Shown piece after piece: positions 1,855 through 55,124 of a stretch of 64,000 nt of DNA. A program made the position numbers and the translations under genes. This DNA is from Phycisphaerae bacterium. GTDB taxonomy: Bacteria > Planctomycetota > Phycisphaerae > Sedimentisphaerales > UBA12454. Numbering within the stretch: the first letter of the stretch is position 1; each line of letters begins with the position of its first letter. The notes beneath the pieces were generated by a model. It saw nothing but the letters and a program-made list of their open reading frames with translations. It did no database searches and was not told where the DNA came from. The DNA is taken from the NCBI GenBank assembly GCA_041652575.1, contig JBAZHC010000014.1, positions 7,137 through 71,136 on the forward strand, written 5' to 3'.

Positions 1855-3474
1855 ATGGCAAAACAAATGATGTTTGATGATGCGGCAAGGGCACAGTTGA
1901 AACAGGGACTTGCCAGTCTGGCAAAGGCGGTTAAGGTAACTCTCGGCCCGACAGGTAAAAACGTCCTGCTGCATAAAAGTTATGGCTCGCCGAAGATTAC
2001 CAAAGACGGCGTGTCCGTAAGCAAAGAAATAGAACTGCCCGAACCGTTTCAGAATATGGGCGCAAAAATGGTCAACCAGGCCGCAAGCAAGACAAGCGAT
2101 GTTGTCGGCGACGGCACCACAACCGCAACAGTTCTGGCTGAAGCGATTTATAACGAAGGGCTGAAAAATGTAACAGCCGGCGCAAATCCTATGGCTATCA
2201 AGCGCGGCATCGATAAAGCCGTACAGGTCGTCGTGGATTTTATCGCTTCGCAGAGCAAAAAAGTCAAAGGTCATGACGATATCGCCAAGGTCGCCTCGAT
2301 AAGCGCGAATAACAATAAGGAAGTCGGCGAAATTCTTGCAAAAGCAATGGACAAAGTCGGCAAAGAGGGCGTTATCGAAATCGAGGACGGCAAAGGGCTC
2401 GAAACAGAGCTTGATGTCGTCGAAGGTATGCAGTTCGACCGCGGCTTTATATCGCCTTACTTCATAACAAATACCTCAACGATGGAAGCTGTTTTGGAGG
2501 ATGCTTACATACTGCTGTATGAAAAGAAACTTTCGAGCATTGCGGAAATCGTCCCGCTTCTTGAAAAAATCGCGCAGGTCGGCGCTCAATTGCTGATAAT
2601 CGCCGAAGAAGTTGAAGGCGAAGCATTGGCAGCTTTGGTTATAAATAAACTTCAGGGCGTTTTGAAGGTTTGCGCGGTAAAGGCTCCGGGCTTTGGCGAC
2701 AGAAGGAAAGCTATGCTGGGCGATATCAGCGTTCTTACCGGCGGCCAGGTACTCACCGAAGACCTCGGCATAAAACTTGAGAAAGTCGAACTGACCCAGC
2801 TCGGCAACGCCAAGAAGATTGTTATCGCAAAGGAAAACACCACGATAATCGAAGGCGCAGGCACAAAGAAGGACATTACTGCACGCTGCGAGCAGATACG
2901 CAAACAGGCTGAAGCGACAACAAGCGATTACGACCGTGAGAAACTTCAGGAAAGACTTGCGAAACTGACCGGCGGCGTAGCGGTAATTAAAGCCGGTGCC
3001 CCGACCGAAGCCGAAATGAAGGAAAGAAAAGACCTTCTCGATGACGCACTGCACGCGACAAAAGCTGCTGCCCAGGAAGGCGTTATCCCTGGCGGCGGTA
3101 TTATTTATCTGCGGGCCATTGAAAAGGTTCGTCAGGCCGGAACAAAAGCATCGGGCGATGAAAAAATCGGATTCGATATTATCGCTAATGCCCTGAAATC
3201 GCCGACAAAACAAATAGTCGATAACGGCGATGACGACGGCGATGTGATTGTCGAAAAACTGCTCGAAAAGACCGGCAATACAGGCTATGATGCCAATACA
3301 GGCGGGTTTGTCGATATGGTCGAAGCAGGCATTATCGACCCGGCTAAAGTGGCAAGATGTGCTCTGCAGAATGCGGCTTCAGTTGCCGGTTTGATGCTGA
3401 CTACCAACGTGCTGATTACTGACCTGAAAGACGATGACAAGGATAAACCTCAAATAGAAGGTTCGGTAAGATAA
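1855..3474 (+). CDS. groL: Chaperonin GroEL/Cpn60, paralog 2 (no GGM tail)
   Basis: 539 aa full-length Cpn60 ([24 protein letters not shown]). Ends in the charged tail [17 protein letters not shown] instead of GGM repeats. Confidence 0.95.
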
Positions 3475-23614: not shown

Positions 23615-24496
23615 ATGAATCCTTGTATGATACCGATAATCGTAAAATTGAAACTGGCCGCCGGCTGGAAGGGCGTTGCCCTTGAGCAATGGTCCGACTT
23701 TGCCTTCGACCCGGAGAAATTAACTCAAAAGCCAGACACGATATTCAAATCGGAAAACGGCAATGTTACCGCCTTAAAGCAAATCGAAATCAAAGGCAAA
23801 AAGATTTTCTTCGTCGTCAAAAAAAACGTCAGGCGCACCGGCATAAGGGCTCTCGGCGATTTACTCAGGGCGCCGAAATCGTTAAGAAATTTCTATCTTG
23901 CCGTGATACTGAAACAAAAGAACATCGAGGTCGCCGAACCGGTGGCCGCTTTATGGCATCGAAAATATGGAAGCATTTATATAACCGAATATATTCAAAA
24001 CAGTTTGAATCTTTATGATATTGCGTTTGGCAAAGATAAGGAAATTATTAAAAACTTCTCCGCGAGAAAAACTGTTATAAGGCAGGTCGCCCAGGTACTT
24101 GCGAAACTGAATAAATCTAATTTCTGGCACAGGGACCCGAAAGCCGGTAATTTTATCATATATAAAGACGGCGGTATTTACAGGGTTAAGCTTATCGACC
24201 TTGACGGCATAAAACAGGACTCCGCCGGCCGCCGAGAAAATCATATAAAAACCATTTCTAAACTTGCCGAGAGCCTGATTCGTTTCAAAGCGGTCAATTT
24301 TGCTGACTTGTACAGGGGCTTTTTGATTTACTGTAATACGATGGGTATAGATGATACAGAGACAAGAGAACTTTTCCGTAAAGTGGCAAAAATAACTGTC
24401 GCCGCAAGGCTTTTAACGATAATTTCAGATTCATATAAACTTAAGATTCTTATATATCTCTGTGTCCTCTGTGAACTCTGTGGCAAAATTAAATGA
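23615..24496 (+). CDS. Lipopolysaccharide kinase (Kdo/WaaP)-family protein kinase-like
   Basis: HRDPKAGNFII and LIDLDG catalytic-loop-like motifs. I prefer ATG 23615 over the TTG at 23579. The last ~12 codons are encoded by a repeat element. Confidence 0.6.
   Translation: MNPCMIPIIVKLKLAAGWKGVALEQWSDFAFDPEKLTQKPDTIFKSENGNVTALKQIEIKGKKIFFVVKKNVRRTGIRALGDLLRAPKSLRNFYLAVILKQKNIEVAEPVAALWHRKYGSIYITEYIQNSLNLYDIAFGKDKEIIKNFSARKTVIRQVAQVLAKLNKSNFWHRDPKAGNFIIYKDGGIYRVKLIDLDGIKQDSAGRRENHIKTISKLAESLIRFKAVNFADLYRGFLIYCNTMGIDDTETRELFRKVAKITVAARLLTIISDSYKLKILIYLCVLCELCGKIK
24453..24485 (+). repeat. 32/33-nt element TATATCTCTGTGTCCTCTGTGAACTCTGTGGC (3x CTCTGTG at 9-nt period), copy 1
   Basis: Identical to 25554-25585. 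Ends 8 nt before the GT9 ATG and lies inside the 3' end of the kinase ORF. Confidence 0.9.
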
Positions 24497-25553: not shown

Positions 25554-25609
25554 TTATATCTCTGTGTCCTCTGTGAACTCTGTGGCTAAAAATAAAAATA
25601 TCTCTGTGG
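25554..25609 (+). repeat. Copy 2 of the CTCTGTG x3 element plus an extra ATATCTCTGTGGC half-unit
   Basis: 25554-25585 is identical to 24454-24485. A further CTCTGTGGC lies at 25601-25609. Located in the GT9/DUF2062 intergenic spacer. Confidence 0.9.
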
Positions 25610-25629
25610 CAAAAAAAAGAAAACATCCG

Positions 25630-26910: not shown

Positions 26911-26995
26911 CTATACTCGTATGCAGTATACTGCATACGAGTATAGTGGGAAAAAATAAGAACTTCAAAGAAGTTGATATTATTGCTTTAAAGCC
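26911..26995. repeat. 36-nt perfect palindrome (26911-26946) plus ~49-nt conserved flank, copy 1
   Basis: CTATACTCGTATGCAGTA|TACTGCATACGAGTATAG. The flank tgggaaaaaataagaacttcaaagaagttgatattattgctttaaagcc recurs inverted at 30866-30910. Confidence 0.9.
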
Positions 26996-27022
26996 TGAGC
27001 TCTACCTGCCCAGCCGAACTTT

Positions 27023-27091
27023 CTCGTCCTTCCGTCCCTTGCCCTGCATAGCATGTAGTGCGACGTAGGGTTAACGAAGGAGGAAGCGAAG
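27023..27091 (+). repeat. ~70-nt REP-like repeat, copy 1 (second copy at 55055-55124)
   Basis: ctcgtccttccgtcccttgccctgcatagcatgtagtgcgacgtagggttaacgaaggaggaagcgaag is about 90% identical by eye to 55055-55124, in the same orientation. Confidence 0.85.
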
Positions 27092-27107
27092 GCGGGTGGC
27101 TAAAATG

Positions 27108-27165
27108 ATTCGTGCGTATTCGTGTTTATTAGTGGTTTAAATTCGTGCCTTAGTGCCTTTGTGGC
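27108..27165. repeat. Short-period GTG/CAC array abutting the ileS stop codon
   Basis: attcgtgcgtattcgtgtttattagtggtttaaattcgtgccttagtgcctttgtggc. The last 25 nt are the inverted match (22/25) of 30081-30105. Confidence 0.8.
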
Positions 27166-30008
27166 TATATTTGCTTCACGACCTCGCCACAGCGACTGCA
27201 CAGCTCCGGCTGTTCCGCGTCTTTGCCAACGCTTGGCCAATAGTTCCAGCATCTTGCGCATTTTTGATGCGGGCTCTTCTCGGCACTAATGGGCTTTTCA
27301 CTCTTTTCTTTATTAAGTTTTATCTCGCTGACGATGCAAAGGGCCGCAAAGTTTTTAACGCCGAACTGTTCGACTATACCGATTAACTCGCCGTCGTCTG
27401 TGGATATTATTACAGACGATTCCTGGTTACTTGCGATGGCCTGTTTCTGGCGAAGTCCCTCAAGTTCTTTTAATACTTCATCGCGCAGAGACATCAGTTT
27501 TTCCCATTTATGTTCTTCTTTCTGCCAGTCGATTGACTTATCGACTTTCGGCATACTCAAAAGATGAACGCTTTCTGCCTTTTCGCTTTTCACGCCTATA
27601 GACTCATATATCTCTTCAGCCGTATGAGCCAGAACCGGAGCAAGCAGTCTCGCGAGGGCGTCGAGTATGGAATACATCGCTGTTTGAGCGCTTCGGCGTG
27701 AAGGTGAATCTTTCCCGTCGCAGTAAAGTCTGTCTTTAAGCAAATCCATATAAATACTGCTCATTTCGATTGAGCAGAAATTGTAAACGAGCGTATAGAC
27801 TTTATGGAACAGGAAATTTTCATAAGCCGATGTAACTTCGCCGATAAGTTTTTGTAACTGCTGCACGGCCCATCGGTCAATCTCGAACATTTTATCGTAA
27901 GAAACGCTGTTTGTCGCGGGGTCGAAATCGGAGATATTGCCCAGCAGATAGCGTATGGTATTTCTGATTTTCCGGTATGCGTCCTGCAGTCTTGCGATAA
28001 GCGTATCGCTGCATCGCATATCTTCCTGATAATTTACACTTGAGACCCAGAGCCTGAGAATATCTGAGCCGTATTTTGTGATTTCTTCCTGAGCGTTGAC
28101 GTAGTTGCCCAGCGACTTGGATTGTTTCCTGCCTTCCGCATCGACAGTAAATCCGTGCGTCAGTACCGTTTTGAAAGGTTCCATACCTGTCACGCCCAGG
28201 GCAGGCAGGAGTGAAAGCTGGAACCAGCCTCTGTGTTGGTCTGAGCCTTCCAGATATAAATCGACCGGCACCGGCCAGCCCGCCTGTTTTGCTACACTGA
28301 ACCACGAACAGCCTGATTCGAACCAGACGTCGAAGATATTTTCTTCTTTTTGCAGGTCCTCGAAGCCAAAGCCTGCCGGCAGTTTAAAGTCTTCGCCGAG
28401 TATTTCCTTTGGCGAATCTATGAACCAGCTATCGGAGCCTTTTTGTCGGATATGTGCAGAAACTGCCAGTACGGATTCTTTTGTTAAAAGAGTTTTTCCC
28501 TCTGAATTATAAAATACCGGTATCGGCATTCCCCAGCATCTTTGCCGTGAAATACACCAATCAGGCCTGGATTCGAGCATTCCGGTAATCCGTTTTTCGC
28601 CCCAGCTCGGTATCCATTTTACTTTTGGAATTCTCTCCAGTGCCAGCTGCCTCAGATTTTTCCCATCCGGCATCGGCCTATCCACCGAAATAAACCATTG
28701 ATCCGTAGCCCGAAAAATGACTGGCATTCTGCTGCGCCAGCAGTGCGGATATGAATGGGTGATTTGGCCCTCGGAGAAAAGCAGGCCTTTGGTTTTCAGG
28801 CACTCATTTACTTCCTTGTCAACCTTTAAGACATTCTTTCCACAGAGCCAGGCCGGAACCGTATCATCATAACAGCCGTCATCCATAACCGGCGAATAAA
28901 CCGCCAGTTTATTCTGTTGGCCGGCGACATAATCTTCAACACCATGGCCGGGAGCGGTATGAACAAGACCTGTACCGTCCTCTGTCGTTACGAAATTGGC
29001 GCTGATTACAAGATAAGCGTCCTTATCTGTCGGGTTCTTCTCGACAAAAGGATGCTGATACCTCAAACCAACCAAATCACTGCCCTTTACCGTCTTCTCG
29101 CTGGCAGTGTAATTTTCAAGTTTACCGACCGCGACAACCGCCTCAAGCCGAGCCTGCGCAATAATCGACGTAAATTTCCTGCCATTCTGAAAATAACTAA
29201 CCGCCTTATAGTCAAGGTCAGGATTGGCAGCAATCGCAAGATTAGCGGCCAATGTCCACGGCGTAGTCGTCCATATCATAAAACAAACATCGCCGCCATC
29301 TCCTCCGGCAAGGCCGAGAGATTTCAATTTATCTATAGAATCTTTCGTCGCAGGGAAATTAACAAAGATGCTCGGCGAGGTAATATCCTCATACTCCAGC
29401 TCTGCATCGGCAAGCGCCGTCTGACAGCCGACACTCCAATGAATCGGCTTGAGCTGTTTATAGACGAGGCCTTTGCCCACAAGCTCGGCAAAGACTTCGC
29501 AGATGCCCGCTTCGTATTGCGGCTTGAGAGTCAGATACGGATTTTCAAAATCGCCGAATATGCCGAGGTCCTTAAACTGCTTCGATTGCAGTTTTACATA
29601 TTTGCTCGCGTATTGCTTGCAGAGCTTTCTGATTTCGAGCTTGCTCATCGTTTTGGCTTTTTCGCCAAGCTCGGTAAAAACCTTCGCCTCGATAGGCAGG
29701 CCGTGACAGTCCCAGCCGGGCACGTAAGGAGCCTTGAAGCCGGACATCGTTTTGTATTTGATAACGATGTCTTTTAAGACCTTGTTTATAACGTGGCCCA
29801 TGTGAATATCGCCGTTGGCGTAAGGGGGTCCATCGTGGAGAGTATATTGAGGCGAATCGGCCTTTGAATCGAGAATCTTTTTGTAGATTTCCATCTTGTC
29901 CCATGCTTTTCGCTGGGCCGGCTCGCGCTGGGTCAGATTGGCCTTCATCGCAAAGTTCGTCTTAGGCAGATTTAACGTCTTACTGTAGTTTTTCTTGTCT
30001 TCAGTCAT
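27165..30008 (-). CDS. ileS: Isoleucyl-tRNA synthetase
   Basis: HIGH motif (PYANGDIHMGH), KMSKS-like KQSKSLG, editing-domain-length insertion, C-terminal Cys zinc motif. I prefer ATG 30008 over the TTG at 30032. Confidence 0.95.
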   Translation of the reverse strand: MTEDKKNYSKTLNLPKTNFAMKANLTQREPAQRKAWDKMEIYKKILDSKADSPQYTLHDGPPYANGDIHMGHVINKVLKDIVIKYKTMSGFKAPYVPGWDCHGLPIEAKVFTELGEKAKTMSKLEIRKLCKQYASKYVKLQSKQFKDLGIFGDFENPYLTLKPQYEAGICEVFAELVGKGLVYKQLKPIHWSVGCQTALADAELEYEDITSPSIFVNFPATKDSIDKLKSLGLAGGDGGDVCFMIWTTTPWTLAANLAIAANPDLDYKAVSYFQNGRKFTSIIAQARLEAVVAVGKLENYTASEKTVKGSDLVGLRYQHPFVEKNPTDKDAYLVISANFVTTEDGTGLVHTAPGHGVEDYVAGQQNKLAVYSPVMDDGCYDDTVPAWLCGKNVLKVDKEVNECLKTKGLLFSEGQITHSYPHCWRSRMPVIFRATDQWFISVDRPMPDGKNLRQLALERIPKVKWIPSWGEKRITGMLESRPDWCISRQRCWGMPIPVFYNSEGKTLLTKESVLAVSAHIRQKGSDSWFIDSPKEILGEDFKLPAGFGFEDLQKEENIFDVWFESGCSWFSVAKQAGWPVPVDLYLEGSDQHRGWFQLSLLPALGVTGMEPFKTVLTHGFTVDAEGRKQSKSLGNYVNAQEEITKYGSDILRLWVSSVNYQEDMRCSDTLIARLQDAYRKIRNTIRYLLGNISDFDPATNSVSYDKMFEIDRWAVQQLQKLIGEVTSAYENFLFHKVYTLVYNFCSIEMSSIYMDLLKDRLYCDGKDSPSRRSAQTAMYSILDALARLLAPVLAHTAEEIYESIGVKSEKAESVHLLSMPKVDKSIDWQKEEHKWEKLMSLRDEVLKELEGLRQKQAIASNQESSVIISTDDGELIGIVEQFGVKNFAALCIVSEIKLNKEKSEKPISAEKSPHQKCARCWNYWPSVGKDAEQPELCSRCGEVVKQI

Positions 30009-30035
30009 TATTTTAAGTCCCTGATAAAGCAAAAC

Positions 30036-30064
30036 ATAATAGTTTCTATTTTATTGCCTGTCAA
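30036..30064 (-). promoter_or_regulatory. Candidate sigma70-type promoter of ileS
   Basis: On the minus strand, TTGACA (30064-30059), a 17-nt spacer, then TATTAT (30041-30036). The -10 hexamer ends 27 nt upstream of the ATG at 30008. Confidence 0.5.
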
Positions 30065-30080
30065 GTGGTTATGGAAAATA

Positions 30081-30142
30081 GCCACAAAGTCACCAAGACA
30101 CGAATTAACACTGTATTTCACCACAGAGAACACAGAGAACAC
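30081..30142. repeat. CAC-core short-period arrays (module 1)
   Basis: gccacaaagtcaccaagacacgaat (30081-30105), linker ttaacactgtatttcaccac, then CACAGAG repeated at 9-nt period (30122-30142). Confidence 0.8.
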
Positions 30143-30203
30143 CCCCGCAGATTCTCGACGAATCTAATCGCGGGGGTCTCCGCTCCGCTTCGACAGAGAC
30201 GCT

Positions 30204-30322
30204 ATTGCTTTAAGGCGTCCCTATCGGGACTATCAAAATCAAACAAACCCCTCTTTAAAGCAAGCTTTAGCCGGGGTTGGCGTTTGATTTTCGGCCCCTA
30301 AGGGGCTTAGCCTTAAAGCAAT
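30204..30322. repeat. Structured ~120-nt element A (candidate ncRNA or MITE-like hairpin element)
   Basis: 13-bp closing helix ATTGCTTTAAGGC/GCCTTAAAGCAAT encloses three hairpins. Same architecture as 30751-30875, with compensatory differences. Confidence 0.6.
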
Positions 30323-30365
30323 AAAACTTCGTCAACAGGTTGATAATCAGTTTATATAACAAAAA

Positions 30366-30400
30366 AGCCTTCCGGATTTTTTGACCCCGGAAGGCTTTTA
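30366..30400. terminator. Bidirectional terminator-like hairpin
   Basis: AGCCTTCCGG (30366-30375) pairs with CCGGAAGGCT (30387-30396). It is flanked by an A-run on the 5' side and TTTT on the 3' side. Confidence 0.5.
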
Positions 30401-30422
30401 AATAGTAGTTTAAAAGAGCCTT

Positions 30423-30545
30423 TCAGGGCGCAGCACCTATGATAATGGCGATAATAATAGCGATGCGGAAGATTGGGCTGTTTGACCCATTCGGCAAGCT
30501 CAGGGCAAGAAAGCTATAAACAGATTGTTTTGAAACATTAGTCAT
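30423..30545 (-). CDS. Candidate 40-aa small hydrophobic-tail peptide
   Basis: Below the ORF-track cutoff. ATG 30545 is preceded by AAGGA (8-nt spacing). Translation is MTNVSKQSVYSFLALSLPNGSNSPIFRIAIIIAIIIGAAP. The stop is followed by the 30366-30400 hairpin. Confidence 0.25.
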   Translation of the reverse strand: MTNVSKQSVYSFLALSLPNGSNSPIFRIAIIIAIIIGAAP

Positions 30546-30597
30546 TTGAAAATCCTTATACCAGTTATTTCGGCAAAAGTCAAGGGATGCTTAATTA

Positions 30598-30715
30598 GCC
30601 ACTAATACACAAAGGCACAAATAAATTTAGACGCTGATTACACTGTTTTTCACCACGAAGAACGGAAGGGACACGAAGGAACGTAACCACGGATTGCACG
30701 GATGACACGGATTCC
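30598..30715. repeat. CAC-core short-period arrays (module 2)
   Basis: gccactaatacacaaaggcacaaat, linker attacactgtttttcaccac, CACGAAG-type array (30651-30683), then CACGGAT x3 at 9-nt period (30688-30712). Confidence 0.8.
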
Positions 30716-30750
30716 GCAGCGGCGGAACGCGGGATTTACGCTGTCAGATA

Positions 30751-30875
30751 TTGCTTTAAGGCGTCCCGATGTGTCGGGACTGTAAATTCAAAGCTTATGC
30801 CTTACTTACAAGCAAGCTTGACGTCGGCATATCGCTTTGAATTTTTGCCACTGTGCGGCTTTCGCCTTAAAGCAA
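30751..30875. repeat. Structured ~125-nt element B (homolog of element A)
   Basis: 12-bp closing helix TTGCTTTAAGGC/GCCTTAAAGCAA. Hairpin GTCCCGA-tgtg-TCGGGAC. Long hairpin AAATTCAAAGC/GCTTTGAATTT with inner TATGCC/GGCATA and an AAGCAAGCTT apex. Confidence 0.6.
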
Positions 30876-30946
30876 CAATATCAACTGCTTTGAAGTTCTT
30901 ATTTTTCTCACTATGCTCGTATGCAGTATACTGCATACGAGCATAG
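30866..30946. repeat. Palindrome-plus-flank element, copy 2 (inverted relative to copy 1)
   Basis: CTATGCTCGTATGCAGTA|TACTGCATACGAGCATAG at 30911-30946. It differs from copy 1 by a paired A>G/T>C change that keeps the palindrome perfect. Confidence 0.9.
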
Positions 30947-31123: not shown

Positions 31124-32242
31124 ATGAATGGTCAATGGATAGGGAAGCATGGAGGCACTAATAGTGGCTCAATAATTGTAAATTGTGATGACAGAGGAGA
31201 TTATTATGAAGGGGTCGCATATATAGGTGATTCTATATATAGCTTGCCCAGCCTTGCTGCTGTTTTTAAAACTAATAATCGAGATAATGATTTTAAGTTT
31301 CGAACGCAAGTTATTATGCCGATTAATAGATTAACAGGGGGGGTAGATAGTTGGGAAAATTGTAAGAAATTATATGCAGATGATACAATTCTTCCAAAAT
31401 ATGCTGATGTCAAAGGATGTTGGGATAGTGAAAGTTTAACCTTAGAGTGGACAACAGATATAGGAACAGGCGGTTTTAGCAAATTGCCTAAAACTAATGC
31501 AGATAAACCATCAGAATACAACCCAATCAATACAGATTGGATTGGCTTTAAAGAATTCGTTTCAACATTAGAGGGAAGGAGATTGTTATTCAGAGGTCAG
31601 AATAAACCGTGGAGGTTGCGAACAGCGTTTCATAGGACAGAGAGGGCAAATTTAGCTAGATTTGTAACAGAGGATATTTCAGCGTTATACAAAAATCTAA
31701 GCGCGAGGACAAAACATCTATTCAATTTGTCTGTGCCAGATGAAAATGGAGCTTTTTACAATTTGTTACAACATCATGGATATCCTACACCTTTGTTGGA
31801 TTGGACGTGCTCACCTTACGTTGCAGCTTTTTTTGCCTATCGAAGCATTGATAAGAACAAAGCAAGCTTGGCTAGGGATGATGAAAAAGTAAGAATATTA
31901 GTTTTTGATTATAAGCAATGGGCCGCAGATTTAAACCAAATTCTTAGTCTGAATACAGCGGCTCTACACTTGTCTACATGTGAGTTTATTGCGATTGAGA
32001 ATGAAAGAATGATACCTCAGCAATCAGTGTCCACGATTACCAATATAGATGACATAGAATCGTATATTCAATTAATAGAGAAAGAAAAAGGGAAAAGTTA
32101 TTTAAAAGTTATTGATTTGCCTGTCACAGAGAGAACAAAGGTGATGCGAGAACTTAGTTTTATGGGCATTACGGCAGGATCTCTATTTCCTGGGTTGGAT
32201 GGTGCTTGTGAGGAACTTAAGGAACGCTTTTTTAACTTATAA
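31124..32242 (+). CDS. FRG-domain protein with an unrecognised ~140-aa N-terminal domain
   Basis: 372 aa. LLFRGQNKPWRLRTAFHR and LLQHHGYPTPLLDWTCSPYVAAFFA are the FRG-domain signature motifs. The gene is AT-rich relative to its neighbours. AAGGA RBS. Confidence 0.8.
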   Translation: MNGQWIGKHGGTNSGSIIVNCDDRGDYYEGVAYIGDSIYSLPSLAAVFKTNNRDNDFKFRTQVIMPINRLTGGVDSWENCKKLYADDTILPKYADVKGCWDSESLTLEWTTDIGTGGFSKLPKTNADKPSEYNPINTDWIGFKEFVSTLEGRRLLFRGQNKPWRLRTAFHRTERANLARFVTEDISALYKNLSARTKHLFNLSVPDENGAFYNLLQHHGYPTPLLDWTCSPYVAAFFAYRSIDKNKASLARDDEKVRILVFDYKQWAADLNQILSLNTAALHLSTCEFIAIENERMIPQQSVSTITNIDDIESYIQLIEKEKGKSYLKVIDLPVTERTKVMRELSFMGITAGSLFPGLDGACEELKERFFNL

Positions 32243-32382
32243 TACCTCATAAAAATAGGTGGCTGTTCCTAATTATTACGGAAATTCCGGATTGTTTTTC
32301 ATTGTTTAGCCCTCTCACTTTTAGTGGGGGTTCGTTTTATTTCATTTTACATTTGTTGCGCGGTTTTTTAATAATAGAACAA

Positions 32383-32832
32383 ATGATAGGATATATGCTT
32401 ACATGGACGACTTATGGCACCTGGCTGCAGGGAGACGAAAGAGGATATGCTAAAGATGGCCAGATTTTGGACAAAAACGAAACGCTTGAAGAAATAAATA
32501 AATCAAATCTTAAAAAACAACCTGTCAAGTTTAATGCCAAACAGAAAGAAATCGTTAAAGAAGCAATCATTCAGGAAGCGAAAAGAATCAATCAAAAAAT
32601 ATTCGCATTAATCGTATATTCAAACCATATACACCTGCTTGTCGAGAAAAATCAAAAATCAATAGAAGCAACAGTGGCGATATACAAAACGGCAGCAAGA
32701 AAGGCCCTGTATCAGACAGGCCTTGAAGGGAAAATATGGTCAAAAGGATTTGACAAAAGATTCTGTTTCAATGAACAGGAATTAAAAAACAGAATTACAT
32801 ATATTCTTCGGCATAATGAAACAATGAAATAA
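32383..32832 (+). mobile_element. HUH/Y1 transposase-like protein (IS200/IS605 TnpA or REP-associated RAYT-like)
   Basis: I prefer ATG 32383. YMLTWTTYGTWLQGDERGY N-terminus, HUH motif (SNHIHLLV), C-terminal catalytic-Tyr motif (ITYILRHN). No tnpB and no obvious IS ends. Confidence 0.7.
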
Positions 32833-32840
32833 ATTACTTA

Positions 32841-32857
32841 TTCCGCCTATGGCGGAA
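32841..32857. repeat. REP-like hairpin TTCCGCC-tat-GGCGGAA 9 nt after the transposase-like gene stop
   Basis: 7-bp stem. A related ATTCCGC-agcg-GCGGAACG lies at 30711-30729. Confidence 0.6.
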
Positions 32858-32877
32858 CGACGGCCCCCCAGCCCCTT

Positions 32878-32906
32878 CCAAAGTTTTTTCGAGGAAAAAA
32901 CTTTGG
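32878..32906. terminator. 13-bp perfect hairpin between convergent genes (bidirectional terminator-like)
   Basis: CCAAAGTTTTTTC-gag-GAAAAAACTTTGG. Confidence 0.45.
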
Positions 32907-32956
32907 AAATAACTCGGGGGTCTACACTTCGTTCCGACGCTTCGCTCCGATGGGGG

Positions 32957-33565
32957 CTAAACAATTTTGAATTTGTTTAAATCTGTTTCTAATAGAAACG
33001 TGCGAAAGGGTTCGTATTTAAAACTATCAAAATTCAGCGGCGCGTATTCCTCGTCGCCGGACTGCAAAACAAATTTGTCGTGGGCGTAAGCGGTCAAAAT
33101 CCAATGCTCGGGACAATCAGCAGCCTCGAAATTAAATGAAACTCCATCGCCAAGTTTAAATTCCGCTCTGCAGAAGCTTCTGCCATTCTTAACGCGAACA
33201 TTTACGCCAAAAAAACCTGTATTGCCGACAATTTTCTTATTTAGTGCGTTTTGCCTGTAAGTGGCAATTCGCAGGTTCTCTCTTCGATTGTCGTACCTGT
33301 CGTTATTAATGTGGTCAACGACCATTCCGGCCGGCGGATTCATAATAAAACGTGAAACCGGGACGAGTCTTGTCGGATTTTTTCCGATGCGAAGAAGGGG
33401 GTAGTTTTCACCTGAGATACGCAAACCAATGATATCGCCAACGTATTTTTTGCGACCGCGGGCAGGGCTGACATTGAATATCTGATAATAAATATCAGGG
33501 TCAACTTTCACAGTTTGGCCTGCGATAGTAAAAGTCAAAAAATCAATTGCGCTTTGCGATGACAT
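32957..33565 (-). CDS. HNH endonuclease with AP2-like DNA-binding region (homing-endonuclease-like)
   Basis: VDHINNDRYDNRRENLRIATYRQN is the HNH_3-type motif. It is followed by GFFGVNVRVKNGRSFCRAEF, which is AP2-like. Confidence 0.75.
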   Translation of the reverse strand: MSSQSAIDFLTFTIAGQTVKVDPDIYYQIFNVSPARGRKKYVGDIIGLRISGENYPLLRIGKNPTRLVPVSRFIMNPPAGMVVDHINNDRYDNRRENLRIATYRQNALNKKIVGNTGFFGVNVRVKNGRSFCRAEFKLGDGVSFNFEAADCPEHWILTAYAHDKFVLQSGDEEYAPLNFDSFKYEPFRTFLLETDLNKFKIV

Positions 33566-34193: not shown

Positions 34194-35882
34194 ATGGATA
34201 AAACCGCAAACAAATATCAAATTCATTTGATTTATATATTACTGGCGGTGATAACTTTTGCCGCCTTCGAGCCGATACTTCATAACGGGTTCGTAAGTTT
34301 CGACGACGACGTATATATTTATGAGAATAGTCATATAACTTCCGGCCTGACGATGGAAAATATCGTCTGGGCATTTCAGAATATTCATGCCAATAATTAT
34401 CATCCCGTAACGTCGCTATCTCATATGCTGGATTGCGAGCTTTACGGGACGAATCCGGCAGGTCATCATTTTACCAATCTGCTGTTTCACATAGCCAATA
34501 CGCTGCTGCTGTTTTATGTTTTGAGCCAGATGACAAAAAGGGTATGGGCGAGTGCGTTTGTCGCGGCTTTGTTTGCGCTGCATCCGCTTCATGTCGAGTC
34601 TGTGGCGTGGGCATCGGAGCGTAAAGATGTGCTGAGCACTTTTTTCTGGCTACTTACGATGTGGGCGTATGTACGTTATTGCCGCGCTGCAAACCTAACC
34701 CCCGGCACAGGTCCGGGGGCTAACCGTTATTATTTATTAACGATTGTATTTTTTATTTTTGGTCTGATGTCCAAGCCGATGCTTGTAACACTTCCGTTTG
34801 TATTGTTATTGCTGGATTATTGGCCGCTGGAACGGTTTGGGAAAGTGCGGACAGGCAAATTGATTTTAGAGAAGATTCCATTTTTTATTCTTTCTGCGGT
34901 ATTGAGTATTGTTACGCTCGACGTTCAGTCGAAAATGGGAATAGTAAAATCGGTTTCGAATTATCCACTGGAATGGCGGATTGAAAATGCTCTTGTATCG
35001 TATGTCATGTATATCTGGAAAATGATTTGGCCGGTCAACCTTGCGGTATTCTATCCGCATCCGAAGGGCAATATTCCTTTGTGGCAGATTACAGGGGCGA
35101 TATTCGTTCTGGTGATTATAACATTGGCTGCTTTGTGGAAATTGCGTAAGCGGCCTTATATTGCGATGGGGTGGCTGTGGTTTTTGGGCACTCTTGTGCC
35201 TGTTATCGGGATATTTCAGGTTGGAATGCAGAGCCGTGCCGACAGATATACATATATTCCTTATATCGGGCTTTTTATTATAATCGCATGGGGCGTTGGC
35301 GATATTTTCGCGAGATTGCGATACCGAAAAATGATTCTGTTAGTTTCAGCAGGTATTCTGCTTTCGGCTCTTTGCGTTAAGACTTATATTCAAAATATAT
35401 ACTGGCATGATAATGTGACGTTATATACACACGCCATAAAAGCGGTCGAGAATAACTGGTGGGCGCATCATTTTCTGGGTAAGGCTCTTGCCAGGCAGAA
35501 GGAATTCGAAGAGGCTATCGTACAGTTCAAGGAGACTCTTCGTATCGACCCGGAAAACGCTACGGTATATCACGGTTTGGCCAAAACATATCTTGATAAA
35601 GGCGATGTAAACGAAGCTGTGAAATTATATCGGCGATTGCTTCCTCCTTTGCCTGATGATTTGAACGAACCGAGAGGCGTCGATACTTCGCGGAACGATT
35701 ATCCGATACTTAGAGATTTATATGTGAGCGCGAATATAAATTTTGCACACGCATTAGTTCGGCAGGGCAATCTCGCCGAGGCTGCCAGGCATTTTAAGGA
35801 AGCACTGCGTCTTGCGCCTGACGCTGTGACGGCGCGAAAAGGACTGGAAGATATAGAAAAACAGACTGCCGGCCATAGATAA
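34194..35882 (+). CDS. GT-C-fold glycosyltransferase with C-terminal TPRs (TMTC/PMT_2-like protein O-mannosyltransferase-like)
   Basis: The polytopic N-terminus has FALHPLHVESVAWASERKDVLS (DUF1736-like motif). TPR repeats at the C-terminus. Confidence 0.8.
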   Translation: MDKTANKYQIHLIYILLAVITFAAFEPILHNGFVSFDDDVYIYENSHITSGLTMENIVWAFQNIHANNYHPVTSLSHMLDCELYGTNPAGHHFTNLLFHIANTLLLFYVLSQMTKRVWASAFVAALFALHPLHVESVAWASERKDVLSTFFWLLTMWAYVRYCRAANLTPGTGPGANRYYLLTIVFFIFGLMSKPMLVTLPFVLLLLDYWPLERFGKVRTGKLILEKIPFFILSAVLSIVTLDVQSKMGIVKSVSNYPLEWRIENALVSYVMYIWKMIWPVNLAVFYPHPKGNIPLWQITGAIFVLVIITLAALWKLRKRPYIAMGWLWFLGTLVPVIGIFQVGMQSRADRYTYIPYIGLFIIIAWGVGDIFARLRYRKMILLVSAGILLSALCVKTYIQNIYWHDNVTLYTHAIKAVENNWWAHHFLGKALARQKEFEEAIVQFKETLRIDPENATVYHGLAKTYLDKGDVNEAVKLYRRLLPPLPDDLNEPRGVDTSRNDYPILRDLYVSANINFAHALVRQGNLAEAARHFKEALRLAPDAVTARKGLEDIEKQTAGHR

Positions 35883-35886
35883 AGCA

Positions 35887-37875
35887 ATGGATAAAACATC
35901 GAGCAAATATTGGTTTGTCTGCATCTGCCTGGCAATGACATTGGTCACGCTGGCGGTTTATTGGCAGATGTGCCAATACGATTTTGTCAACTTTGACGAT
36001 TATAAATACGTAGGAGAAAATCCCCATGTCCGGTACGGATTTACGCGGGAAGGTATTAAATGGGCGTTTACGAACTTTGGATACGCAGGCAACTGGCACC
36101 CGCTGACGTGGCTTAGTCATATACTTGACTGCCAGCTTTACGGAGTTGACCCCGGCCGGCAGCATTTGACTAATTTATTCCTGCATATTGCAAATACCCT
36201 TTTGTTATTTGCTGTTTTCAGTGCAATGACCGGCACGCTTTGGCAGAGCGCCTTCGTCGCGGCACTGTTCGTATTGCATCCGATGCACGTTGAATCTGTG
36301 GCGTGGATATCGGAACGCAAGGATCTTCTCAGTACCTTGTTTTGGCTGCTGACAATGTGGGCGTATGTTAGATATTGCCACTGCGTTGCCATACCGGCAA
36401 CGGCTAAACAAACCCCCACCACAGGTGTGGGGGCTAAACATTATTATTTATTAACGATTGTATTTTTTATTTTTGGGCTGCTGTCCAAACCGATGCTTGT
36501 TACTTTGCCGTTCGTTTTGCTGCTGCTTGATTACTGGCCTTTGGAGCGTTTCGGGAAACGGTCAGTCTATAACCTGATTTTGGAAAAAATACCGTTGTTT
36601 GTATTGTCGGCGGTATCGAGTGTTATTACTGTCTTTGTTCAAAAAATAATTACAGTTGACCGGCTGCCTTTTAATCTTCGCATCGCCAATGCCTTTATTT
36701 CCTATGTCAGGTACATTGGGAAAATGATTTGGCCCTGCGGACTGACATTTTTTTATCCATATCCCGGCCTGAAGATATCTTTTTTTTATGTCGCAACATC
36801 GGCTGTTCTCCTGCTGGCCGTAACAGTTCTTATAATCAGATTCGCCGGAAAACATCGTTATATAGTTACAGGCTGGTTATGGTATCTTGGAACGCTTTTT
36901 CCTGTTATCGGGCTGGTACAGGTCGGCGGCCAGGCGATGGCGGACCGCTACAGCTATATTCCTCTGACAGGTTTATTTATTATTATCGCATTCGGTCTGC
37001 CTGAATTGCTGGGGAAATTGCCGCATCGAAAAATTGTACTTTGGATTTCATCACTAATAATTTTATCCGTATTGGCCGTGTGCGCGTATTTTCAGCAGCA
37101 ATACTGGAAAAATACCGCAGTACTTTGTCAGCATGCAATAAAAGTAACCAAAAATAATTATTTGGCGCATTCCTGCATGGCCGAATACTTTCTCAATCAG
37201 AAGATGTTCGATGACGCCATCATGGAAAGTCGGAAATCTCTTGAGATAAAGCCGGAAGGGCCGGAGGCTCTTAATGTTATTGGAGTTATACTCAGTCAGC
37301 AGGGCAAATCAGAAGAGGCCATCGAATATTTTGCCAAGGCTCTCCAGATAAAACCTGATTTTGCCGCTACCCACGACAATATGGGTCATGCTCTGCTCCT
37401 GCAGGGAAACCTGGACGAGGCTGCGGTACATTTTGCCGAGTCGCTGCGGCTTGACCCTGATGCCGCATTGCCGCACTATCATCTCGGGCAGGTTTTGTCC
37501 CAAAGAGGTAAAATCACTGATGCTGTCATACACTTCGAAAAGGCGATTCGGCTTAAACCTTACTGGTTCGAACCGATGAATGATTTGGCATGGATTCTGT
37601 CTGTCAATAAAGACGCTGCGATTCGTAATCCTGTCAGGGCGGTCGGGCTTGCGCGGCGAGCCTGCGAACTTACTAATTACGAAAATCCCGGCATATTGGA
37701 TACTCTGGCGGCCGCTTATGCCTCTGCAGGCAACTTTAGTATGGCCATAGAAACTTCTATGAATGCTCTGAAGCTATGTAAATCGCCTCGGCAGGACATA
37801 TTTAAAAAGGAAATTGAAAGCCGGCTGGTTTTATATAGAGCAGGCGAGTCTTTTATCGAAACAAACGCTGAATAA
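35887..37875 (+). CDS. GT-C-fold glycosyltransferase with C-terminal TPRs, tandem paralog
   Basis: FVLHPMHVESVAWISERKDLLS, with an N-terminal half colinear to the upstream gene. Longer TPR region. Confidence 0.8.
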   Translation: MDKTSSKYWFVCICLAMTLVTLAVYWQMCQYDFVNFDDYKYVGENPHVRYGFTREGIKWAFTNFGYAGNWHPLTWLSHILDCQLYGVDPGRQHLTNLFLHIANTLLLFAVFSAMTGTLWQSAFVAALFVLHPMHVESVAWISERKDLLSTLFWLLTMWAYVRYCHCVAIPATAKQTPTTGVGAKHYYLLTIVFFIFGLLSKPMLVTLPFVLLLLDYWPLERFGKRSVYNLILEKIPLFVLSAVSSVITVFVQKIITVDRLPFNLRIANAFISYVRYIGKMIWPCGLTFFYPYPGLKISFFYVATSAVLLLAVTVLIIRFAGKHRYIVTGWLWYLGTLFPVIGLVQVGGQAMADRYSYIPLTGLFIIIAFGLPELLGKLPHRKIVLWISSLIILSVLAVCAYFQQQYWKNTAVLCQHAIKVTKNNYLAHSCMAEYFLNQKMFDDAIMESRKSLEIKPEGPEALNVIGVILSQQGKSEEAIEYFAKALQIKPDFAATHDNMGHALLLQGNLDEAAVHFAESLRLDPDAALPHYHLGQVLSQRGKITDAVIHFEKAIRLKPYWFEPMNDLAWILSVNKDAAIRNPVRAVGLARRACELTNYENPGILDTLAAAYASAGNFSMAIETSMNALKLCKSPRQDIFKKEIESRLVLYRAGESFIETNAE

Positions 37876-55054: not shown

Positions 55055-55124
55055 CTCGTCCTCCGTAGCCCCTGCCCTGCATAGCATATAGTGCGGCGTA
55101 GGGTTAGCGAAGGAGGAAGCGAAG
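55055..55124 (+). repeat. ~70-nt REP-like repeat, copy 2
   Basis: ctcgtcctccgtagcccctgccctgcatagcatatagtgcggcgtagggttagcgaaggaggaagcgaag. It is embedded between gtcattgcaagc and gcgaagcaatc. Confidence 0.85.

Follow-up and report, generated by a model that had tools for sequence, protein, structure and literature searches.

A family of dispersed intergenic cloverleaf repeats under strand-specific structural selection in uncultivated Sedimentisphaerales

Small repeats of bacterial chromosomes are exemplified by the REP (repetitive extragenic palindromic) sequences of E. coli and Pseudomonas, which occur in BIMEs (bacterial interspersed mosaic elements) and REPINs together with RAYT (TnpA-REP) transposases (PMC3733652). 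Here we describe two elements, A and B, in a 64,000-nt stretch of DNA from a Phycisphaerae bacterium (GenBank assembly GCA_041652575.1, contig JBAZHC010000014.1, positions 7,137 to 71,136 of the forward strand; hereafter the window), which belong to a family of dispersed intergenic repeats that had not been described before and that occurs in uncultivated Sedimentisphaerales (Planctomycetota). Like REP/BIME systems (PMC3733652), the new element, a cloverleaf, is high-copy, strictly intergenic and non-coding; its hairpin structure is kept while the sequence drifts, it forms mosaics with other short motifs, RayT-type genes reside in the same genomes, and it is presumed to be handled as a single strand. 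Unlike REP, which is a 20-40-nt single hairpin or hairpin dimer, cloverleaf copies are 115-127 nt long with four helices round a junction, show no conserved GTAG/CGTC tag in their alignment, flank no RAYT gene that we found (the RayT genes inspected have another hairpin), and are linked with fixed polarity to arrays of GTG repeats. By analogy, the cloverleaf would seem to work most like REP/BIME-REPIN and IS200/IS605-derived elements and, in its logic, like integron attC sites, while failing the defining features of each. With moderate confidence, we propose that A and B are copies of a non-autonomous intergenic repeat that forms one module of a BIME-like mosaic, and that an enzyme encoded in trans recognises and propagates it as a single DNA strand in its folded form.

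Both elements consist of a closing helix (P1) and three hairpins (P2, P3 and P4). This is the minimum-free-energy (MFE) fold of A and B on either strand with RNA or DNA parameters, and the two copies were delimited from MFE folds and a covariance model, R1:

30204..30322, minus strand: element A, a full four-way-junction copy
Helices of A, minus strand: P1 5' arm 30322-30310; P2 30306-30294 (GCCCC-TTA-GGGGC); P3, the long hairpin, 30291-30235; P4 30230-30217; P1 3' arm 30216-30204
30750..30876, minus strand: element B, a full four-way-junction copy
Helices of B, minus strand: P1 5' arm 30876-30864 (13th pair G·T); P2 30859-30847; P3 30844-30784, apex G(CTTG)C; P4 30780-30763; P1 3' arm 30762-30750

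An initial annotation, made from the letters of the window, had drawn two elements of identical multi-helix architecture here. All of its helices are present where it had placed them, and MFE folding recovers them in A and B on both strands. For B the helices were real, and two details have been corrected. Its extent becomes 30750-30876, since P1 gains a 13th pair (30750/30876) that is G·T on the minus strand and A·C on the plus strand. The length of its 'hairpin 3' changes as well; this is our P2, which has 5 bp including one G·T on the minus strand and 3 bp on the plus strand. With RNA parameters, the MFE is -56.5 (plus) and -57.7 (minus) kcal/mol for A, and -53.8 (plus) and -60.4 (minus) kcal/mol for B (z -6.7 to -9.5; 0 of 200 shuffles equally stable). 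DNA parameters give the same junction on the minus strand of A and B, with z of -7.5 and -8.5. The terminal inverted repeats are 12-13-bp perfect arms in A and B, and arms were found in all 86 copies of the family described below.

Further copies, which the initial annotation had suggested seeking with a covariance model, do exist. A genome search, covering one genome per species and taking two exact 12-nt arms 80-110 nt apart, returned 38 loci in 16 metagenome-assembled genomes (MAGs). Fourteen of these are labelled Phycisphaerae, Sedimentisphaerales or Planctomycet-, and the remaining two are short contigs that are probably mis-binned. The exact arm pair also gave 61 loci in JGI metagenomes. 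Nearly all loci lie in Phycisphaerae/Sedimentisphaerales MAGs or in metagenomes from freshwater or peat, with SPRUCE peat and the sediments of Lac Pavin and similar lakes among the source habitats. Every sequence comes from MAGs or metagenomes and was retrieved via the element itself. R1, which was built from 11 copies of a single subfamily, picked up every other subfamily as well as copies with different arms (ATTGCTTCAAC/GTTGAAGCAAT, TTTGTTTCAAC/GTTGAAACAAA and ..AAGAC/GTCTT..); in the window it reported A and B and nothing else. The 99 exact-arm loci from genomes and metagenomes, plus the variant-arm copies found by R1, come to 86 distinct sequences.

No match of the family to a described RNA or to phage or plasmid records was found. 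Rfam 15 had no match overlapping A or B even at E values up to 10, consistent with the novelty that the initial annotation had suggested, and over the whole window it returned at gathering score two tRNAs and nothing else. A tRNA- or tmRNA-like gene was considered and rejected, as ARAGORN reports just tRNA-Ala (11631) and tRNA-Thr (50741) in the window. The arm-pair pattern was not found in viral contigs, and BLAST with the B composite (the element together with its flanking modules) had no match in phage and plasmid records, so a phage or plasmid origin was likewise set aside. We found no description of such elements in the literature on Phycisphaerae or Sedimentisphaerales repeats.

The fold of the element is clearly under selection. 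Two alignments were collected separately, a genome set of 42 copies and a metagenome set of 61 distinct copies. Canonical pairs fill 94.6% and 95.1% of the pair cells, respectively, and 37 of 47 and 35 of 47 pairs are changed on both sides. The covariation score is 0.481 in the genome set and 0.411 in the metagenome set, against 0.151 ± 0.008 (0 of 500 shuffles reach the observed value) and 0.132 after shuffling, and against at most 0.063 and 0.064 when partners are slid by 1-3 columns. Because the copies share ancestry, the shuffle statistics should not be read as probabilities, and the alignments were fitted to the model, which somewhat inflates pairing; MFE folds computed for each sequence by itself, without the model alignment, arrive at the same four-way junction. 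The contention that the paired but divergent helices of A and B reflect selection on the fold and not a recent duplication is thus borne out by 86 copies with about 95% canonical cells, by the 35-37 two-sided pairs of 47, and by scores (0.41-0.48) far above the shuffled (0.13-0.15) and slid (at most 0.064) controls.

Only P1 and the A/T-rich P3 base (AAATTCAAA/TTTGAATTT) are conserved in sequence. The canonical arms of P1 are TTGCTTTAAGGC/GCCTTAAAGCAA, with the variants TTGCTTCAAC/GTTGAAGCAA and TTGTTTCAAC/GTTGAAACAA. P2, P4, inner P3 and the P3 apex are free to vary in sequence and keep their pairing. There are at least five P3 subfamilies, across which the hairpin types of P2 and P4 are shuffled. 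We considered a pseudo-dyad relating P1 to the P3 base, but the two consensus sequences share just 'TT.AA', and the idea was dropped as unconvincing.

The selected, folding strand is the minus strand of the window. R1 scores A at 69.2 bits (E 2e-13) on the minus strand versus 44.1 bits on the plus strand, and B at 119.1 versus 35.9 bits. The minus-strand fold is the better one in 33 of 39 copies (mean -50.1 versus -45.6 kcal/mol), and paired columns contain 85 G·T-type cells versus 29 of A·C type. The motif GCGNAGC is present on the folding strand of 59 of the 86 copies and on the opposite strand of none of them. C(GNA)G triloops account for 58 of the 142 loops of the short arms (P2 and P4); triloops (110) and tetraloops (109) are about equally common, and among 213 loops GNRA occurs once and UNCG never. 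The oligonucleotide d(GCGNAGC) is an extraordinarily stable 'mini-hairpin DNA', its RNA counterparts are considerably less stable, and such mini-hairpins are known from single-stranded replication-initiation sites (PMC13037366; PMC3201870). The loop types of the element therefore point to DNA, and we take its functional form to be one folded strand, the window minus strand, most likely as single-stranded DNA. It resembles in this the single-strand initiation (ssi) signals, among them phage G4 ori-c and plasmid ssi, which are multi-hairpin single-stranded DNAs of about 100-140 nt with GCGNAGC-type mini-hairpins (PMC13037366). Those signals, however, are single sites on phage or plasmid replicons, whereas the cloverleaf occurs in several copies per Mb of chromosome and in none of the phage, plasmid and viral collections.

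Alternatively, the element could be a new class of structured non-coding RNA, made from the minus strand, possibly together with the GTG (GUG) array, and serving, for instance, as a scaffold to which proteins bind or as a 5' domain that confers stability; we regard this as possible but doubtful. The very strong strand-specific covariation with G·U pairs would fit such an RNA, and so would the multi-helix junction, in which P3 has one-sided internal loops rich in purines, the G(CUUG)C apical tetraloops of 17 copies, and the fixed polarity with GTG arrays, which elsewhere in the window stand in sense just before start codons. With no matching family in Rfam, it would be new. The near-absence of GNRA and UNCG loops and the dominance of the DNA-type GCGNAGC speak against it, as do truncated copies, solo arms and nested insertions, which are typical of selfish repeats.

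The genomic positions of the copies bear further on this alternative. All copies are intergenic, and their neighbours are diverse, unrelated housekeeping genes. Relative to the nearest open reading frames (ORFs) of at least 150 aa, 45 copies are arranged opposite/opposite (17), same/opposite (12), opposite/same (8) and same/same (8), which is indistinguishable from random. In the commonest of these layouts (17 of 45), neither neighbour could give a sense transcript, which counts against an RNA. Nor does the element appear to carry signals of its own: its 5' flanks are heterogeneous, unrelated modules in which no conserved promoter was found, and no terminator or U-tract follows P1 in either direction. 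At the window locus, the promoter of ileS, the isoleucyl-tRNA synthetase (IleRS) gene, TTGACA-17-TATTAT (30064-30036, 11 of 12 positions), lies downstream of A and its GTG array. The same layout, with TTGACA-17-TATCAT read by eye, is found downstream of the element at locus L014. Because a near-consensus promoter lies downstream of element and array at both loci, the element is not part of the ileS mRNA. A T-box or other 5' leader of ileS was rejected on the same ground, and the element is also found at unrelated genes in all orientations.

Taken together, dispersed intergenic copies in random orientation, truncated and nested copies, GCGNAGC triloops, and the lack of a promoter or terminator make a repeat element the better fit, and the family looks more like a DNA element of REP/BIME or MITE type (a MITE being a miniature inverted-repeat transposable element) than a classical RNA gene. 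Of the two possibilities that the initial annotation had left side by side, a novel structured RNA or a MITE-like hairpin element, the repeat-element side is thus favoured, although not as a plain MITE, given the absence of a target-site duplication, the strand-specific four-way junction and the GTG arrays on the 3' side.

BLAST clustering of the neighbouring ORFs produced only a few small clusters of shared genes, of which ileS is the clearest. No record exactly matches the window's IleRS protein, by which sister strains might have been recognised. The ileS locus carries elements in four genomes (those of the window and of L014, L025 and L026), and these belong to different subfamilies. The most similar copies sit at unrelated loci of different species (L007 versus L026, 98.9%).

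The cloverleaves do not stand alone but are joined to other short modules, and the following composite features surround A and B:

30079..30203, minus strand: GTG-repeat array directly 3' of A, GTGTTCTCTGTGTTCTCTGTGGTGAAA ... GTGTCTTGGTGACTTTGTGGCTA, from sequence, alignment, motif scan and promoter scan
30595..30749, minus strand: GTG-repeat array directly 3' of B, with ATCCGTG three times, CTTCGTG-type units, GTGGTGAAAAACAGTG, and TTTGTG...TAGTGGCTAA
30877..30946, minus strand: module upstream of B, a 36-nt perfect palindrome CTATGCTCGTATGCAGTATACTGCATACGAGCATAG (30911-30946) plus a 34-nt linker, from the repeat family and flank comparison
26911..27170, plus strand: truncated composite, the third in the window, lying beyond ileS and pointing towards it, from sequence and an arm-search match with 1 mismatch

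The GTG arrays begin within about 10 nt 3' of the element, in the folding orientation, in almost every copy. Their units (e.g. CTCTGTG, CTTCGTG, ATTCGTG, ATCCGTG) usually come in threes and are closed by GTGG(C/T)TAA or GTGGTGAAAA, and the spacing from GTG to GTG peaks at 8-10 nt. The polarity is fixed: of 84 copies, 73 have three or more GTG in the first 60 nt on their 3' side, and no copy has as many on its 5' side. The 5' side is instead T-rich and occupied by one of several unrelated modules. The array of A stops some 15 nt before reaching the -35 box of the ileS promoter and has a REP-like G/C hairpin, CCCCCGC...GCGGGGG (30143-30177), inserted near its start; a small hairpin, TTCCGC-CGC-TGCGGAA, is inserted in the array of B. 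In the window, GTG arrays lie at 24453-24488, 25555-25612 and 27097-27170 on the plus strand and at 30079-30142 and 30595-30749 on the minus strand, the first two being modules without a cloverleaf. These two, at 24453-24488 (before an ATG at 24493) and 25555-25612, are in sense orientation directly upstream of start codons in a lipopolysaccharide-core gene cluster. To our knowledge, none of the patterns of DnaA boxes, sigma-54 or extracytoplasmic-function (ECF) promoters, CsrA sites and rut (Rho utilisation) sites fits all module types.

The linkage of cloverleaf and array raises the possibility that the two, the array being composed of (C/T)GTG units spaced 9-10 nt apart on the 3' side, make up one functional unit that is new in kind. 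Such a unit might be a chromosomal single-strand DNA signal, in which a junction of mini-hairpins escapes single-stranded DNA-binding protein and recruits a primase, polymerase or recombinase beside repeated initiation or target triplets, or a multi-copy structured RNA whose repeat tail titrates a protein. We offer this tentatively, and consider it rather unlikely.

The palindrome-linker module lies 5' of the element in at least 9 of the 86 copies, and the 36-nt palindrome recurs upstream of cloverleaf copies in other genomes, being split by an insertion in L054. In the window, the palindrome CTAT(A/G)CTCGTATGCAGTATACTGCATACGAG(T/C)ATAG is found at 26911-26946 and 30911-30946, on both sides of the ileS region. 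The truncated composite beyond ileS is made up of the first of these palindromes, the same linker as that of B, and a solo P1 5' arm, ATTGCTTTAAAGC (26982-26994), with the rest of the four-way junction absent; it continues with an unrelated repeat (27036-27091), after which come GTG modules (about 27097-27170) overlapping the stop codon of ileS. That unrelated 56-nt repeat, CCCTTGCCCTGCATAGCATGTAGTGCGACGTAGGGTTAACGAAGGAGGAAGCGAAG, is present at 27036-27091 and 55069-55124, two distant intergenic sites, with 93% identity, and is another member of the repeat repertoire. Other loci hold solo arms and half elements, as well as small hairpins inserted in P3 apices, between P1 and P2, in GTG modules and in the palindrome.

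Turnover of these parts can be fast. Between L010 and L105, which are near-identical strains, the element is identical, while three differences set the surrounding mosaics apart: a single 9-nt GTG unit, an insert of 23 nt, and the exchange of one hairpin module for another. Small G/C-rich hairpins, such as TCCGCC-N3-GGCGGA, CCCCCGC...GCGGGGG and CGGAGCCTGCCCC...GGGGTGG, are inserted in GTG modules (usually just after a GTG) and in cloverleaf loops. They were seen at 30143-30177, 30716-30735 and 32846-32862 of the window, at L028:1230-1372 and L025:3470-3611, and in L010 against L105. As one of two near-identical strains has the 23-nt insert and the other lacks it, this hairpin class appears to have been mobile recently.

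Pairs of composites in opposite orientation face inward, with their GTG arrays adjoining the enclosed gene or genes, in 4 cases and outward in 0, which is too few for significance:

window, 26911-30946: inward-facing pair enclosing ileS
L025:3470-7271: inward-facing pair enclosing ileS in a second species
L028:1230-3689: inward-facing pair enclosing two genes
L070:2603-3569: inward-facing pair

Another reading is that the host has co-opted the element as a cis element acting on transcription or mRNA, whether as a barrier to 3'-exonucleases, a terminator or insulator between transcription units, or a platform for nucleoid proteins or gyrase with phased GTG arrays, as proposed for E. coli REP/BIME, ERIC and Correia elements. 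The copies are always intergenic and often at gene ends, inward-facing composites surround ileS (window and L025) and two genes (L028), the fold is very stable on both strands, and a GTG spacing of 8-10 nt is close to one helical turn. We nevertheless judge this explanation unlikely: strand-specific selection is unexpected for a duplex or a cruciform, random orientation to genes speaks against a strand-specific role in mRNA, no U-tract follows the structure in either direction, and the inward pairs are too few for significance.

How might a propagated module of a BIME-like mosaic, the reading that we prefer, be maintained? The two conserved duplex boxes, P1 and the base of P3, whose geometry is fixed by the junction, would be the recognition site of a trans-encoded DNA-processing enzyme, for which an HUH/Y1 transposase (RayT- or IS200-type) or a recombinase are candidates. 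The enzyme would copy or move the module into the borders of GTG arrays via a single-stranded intermediate, as for REP/REPIN, IS200/IS605-derived elements and integron attC. Selection for competence in propagation could then give rise to the compensatory changes, and any effects on neighbouring genes (the element here lies upstream of the ileS promoter) would be secondary.

A gene of the right kind is near at hand in the window. The ORF at 32302-32832 on the plus strand, with a probable start at 32386, is a RayT-type Y1/HUH transposase gene 1.5 kb from the element. It scores 23.7 bits with Pfam Y1_Tnp and 39 bits with NCBIfam REP_Tyr_transpos (below the cutoff of 80); its translation shows HIH as an HUH motif and, within TYILRHN, a Tyr that is a candidate for the catalytic one, and its homologues are named RayT by JGI. 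The gene has flanks at 32243-32385 and 32833-32962, and its neighbours are an FRG-domain gene (31124-32242) on one side and an HNH endonuclease gene (32957-33565, minus strand) on the other. Its downstream flank ends in GGGGGCTAAACAA, which resembles the AACGAACGAACCCCC...GGGGGCTAAA hairpins flanking the RayT homologues at L039 and L042 but is here broken by nested hairpins. These genomes are thus established to hold transposase systems of the single-strand DNA type, together with several small repeat families side by side.

Several observations nevertheless weigh against propagation by such an enzyme. No enzyme linked to the element was found. The RayT homologues at L039 and L042 have tandem AACGAACGAACCCCC-loop-GGGGGCTAAA hairpins, and not cloverleaves, on their flanks, and near the RayT genes of L039-L045, R1 detected no convincing element, with one weak hit about 3.7 kb away. 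A tblastn search with 120 RayT homologues in about 0.7 Mb around elements placed RayT within 2 kb of an element in the window and L037 only, and the L037 RayT has inverted repeats of its own, outside which the element lies. A link between RayT and the element is therefore not established. Mobility itself we infer: flank matches did not exceed those of mismatched-flank controls, giving no target-site duplication, and only filled alleles were retrieved, so that an empty/filled allele pair was not found, a bias of collecting loci through the element. Within-genome copy pairs have a median identity of 55%, unlike the copies of a recent MITE burst. Judged from the sign of local GC skew and neighbour-gene orientation, the folding strand tends to be the one that does not serve as the lagging-strand template (24 loci versus 10); this weak and crude trend, confounded by gene orientation, is opposite to what an IS200-like mechanism predicts. 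The G(CUUG)C apices and the one-sided purine-rich loops of P3, which would suit RNA, count on the same side.

Comparison with other mobile elements gives a mixed picture. Like the bacterial MITEs (Correia/NEMIS, ERIC/IRU, RUP), which are about 100-150 bp long, the cloverleaf has terminal inverted repeats, is non-coding and intergenic, includes truncated and nested copies, and has subfamilies common to several species. Unlike them, it lacks a target-site duplication, its interior is not one long hairpin, selection on it is strand-specific, and its within-genome copies are mostly diverged. Among 117 neighbouring ORFs, no transposase of an autonomous parent insertion sequence with the same ends was found. 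A plain MITE was accordingly rejected; the combination of terminal inverted repeats with target-site duplications, which the initial annotation had named as the mark of one, was not observed beyond chance. Like IS200/IS605-derived elements (PATEs) and other HUH substrates, the cloverleaf carries, on one active strand, hairpins close to each of its ends; it shares with them the lack of a target-site duplication, insertion beside a fixed sequence context and, as we infer for the cloverleaf, a single-stranded intermediate. Unlike IS200/IS605, whose ends are not complementary to each other, its ends pair; TnpA/TnpB were not found near it, and its 5' flank is T-rich, with no defined tetra- or pentanucleotide seen there.

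The resemblance to integron attC sites is of another kind. What the two have in common is a comparable length, conservation of structure over sequence, the folding of one strand, and a variable terminal structure placed between two conserved duplex boxes. One could accordingly view the element as an attC-like folded site for a tyrosine recombinase, with P1 as the 'R box', the P3 base as the 'L box' and the rest as variable terminal structure. Just two boxes are conserved in sequence, folding is strand-specific, same-orientation tandem copies lie 0.2-1.1 kb apart at about 9 distinct loci, and the rare variant arms TTTCAAC/GTTGAAA agree with RYYYAAC/GTTRRRY at 6 of 7 positions, read by eye. We think this very improbable, however, since the canonical arms TTGCTTTAAGGC/GCCTTAAAGCAA lack AAC/GTT and the R''/R' sites, and matches in variant arms are set in from the ends. 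The structure is a four-way junction and not a bulged hairpin with extrahelical bases, the tandem spacers contain repeats and not cassettes, and most copies are solitary. A Pfam scan of the 117 neighbouring ORFs found no integrase and no recurrent transposase. A retron msr-msd was also considered and discarded: the neighbours of the element are the IleRS gene, an FRG-domain protein gene and housekeeping genes, with no adjacent reverse transcriptase, and the element is multi-copy.

Some further features of the window were recorded. Between A and B lies a 40-codon ORF, MTNVSKQSVYSFLALSLPNGSNSPIFRIAIIIAIIIGAAP (30423-30545, minus strand), with a hydrophobic tail and no Pfam hit. It has a promoter-like TTGACT-17-TATAAG upstream (about 30553-30581, minus strand, read by eye) and a strong, bidirectional terminator-like hairpin beside it (30360-30400). 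This region could encode a small membrane peptide, a toxin or a small RNA, and the ORF is not present in the spacers between tandem cloverleaves at other loci. Elsewhere, the tandem paralogous ORFs 122-1471 and 1855-3474 share 71-74% identical stretches; from the DNA repeats, we take this pair to be putatively chaperonin-like. A second tandem paralogous pair is formed by 34194-35882 and 35887-37875, the first of which has TPR domains (Pfam).

Known prokaryotic small repeats are single hairpins or hairpin dimers, and a branched, strand-specific cloverleaf under structural selection widens that range. The cloverleaf provides a defined substrate with which to seek its handling enzyme in the Planctomycetota/Sedimentisphaerales, a phylum with almost no genetics, and the fixed polarity of the GTG arrays, combined with fast turnover of the mosaic between near-identical strains, offers a system for studying how such mosaics are assembled. 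Finally, the covariance model tells cloverleaf repeats from genuine RNA genes in the annotation of MAGs, and flags regions that are likely to break assemblies.

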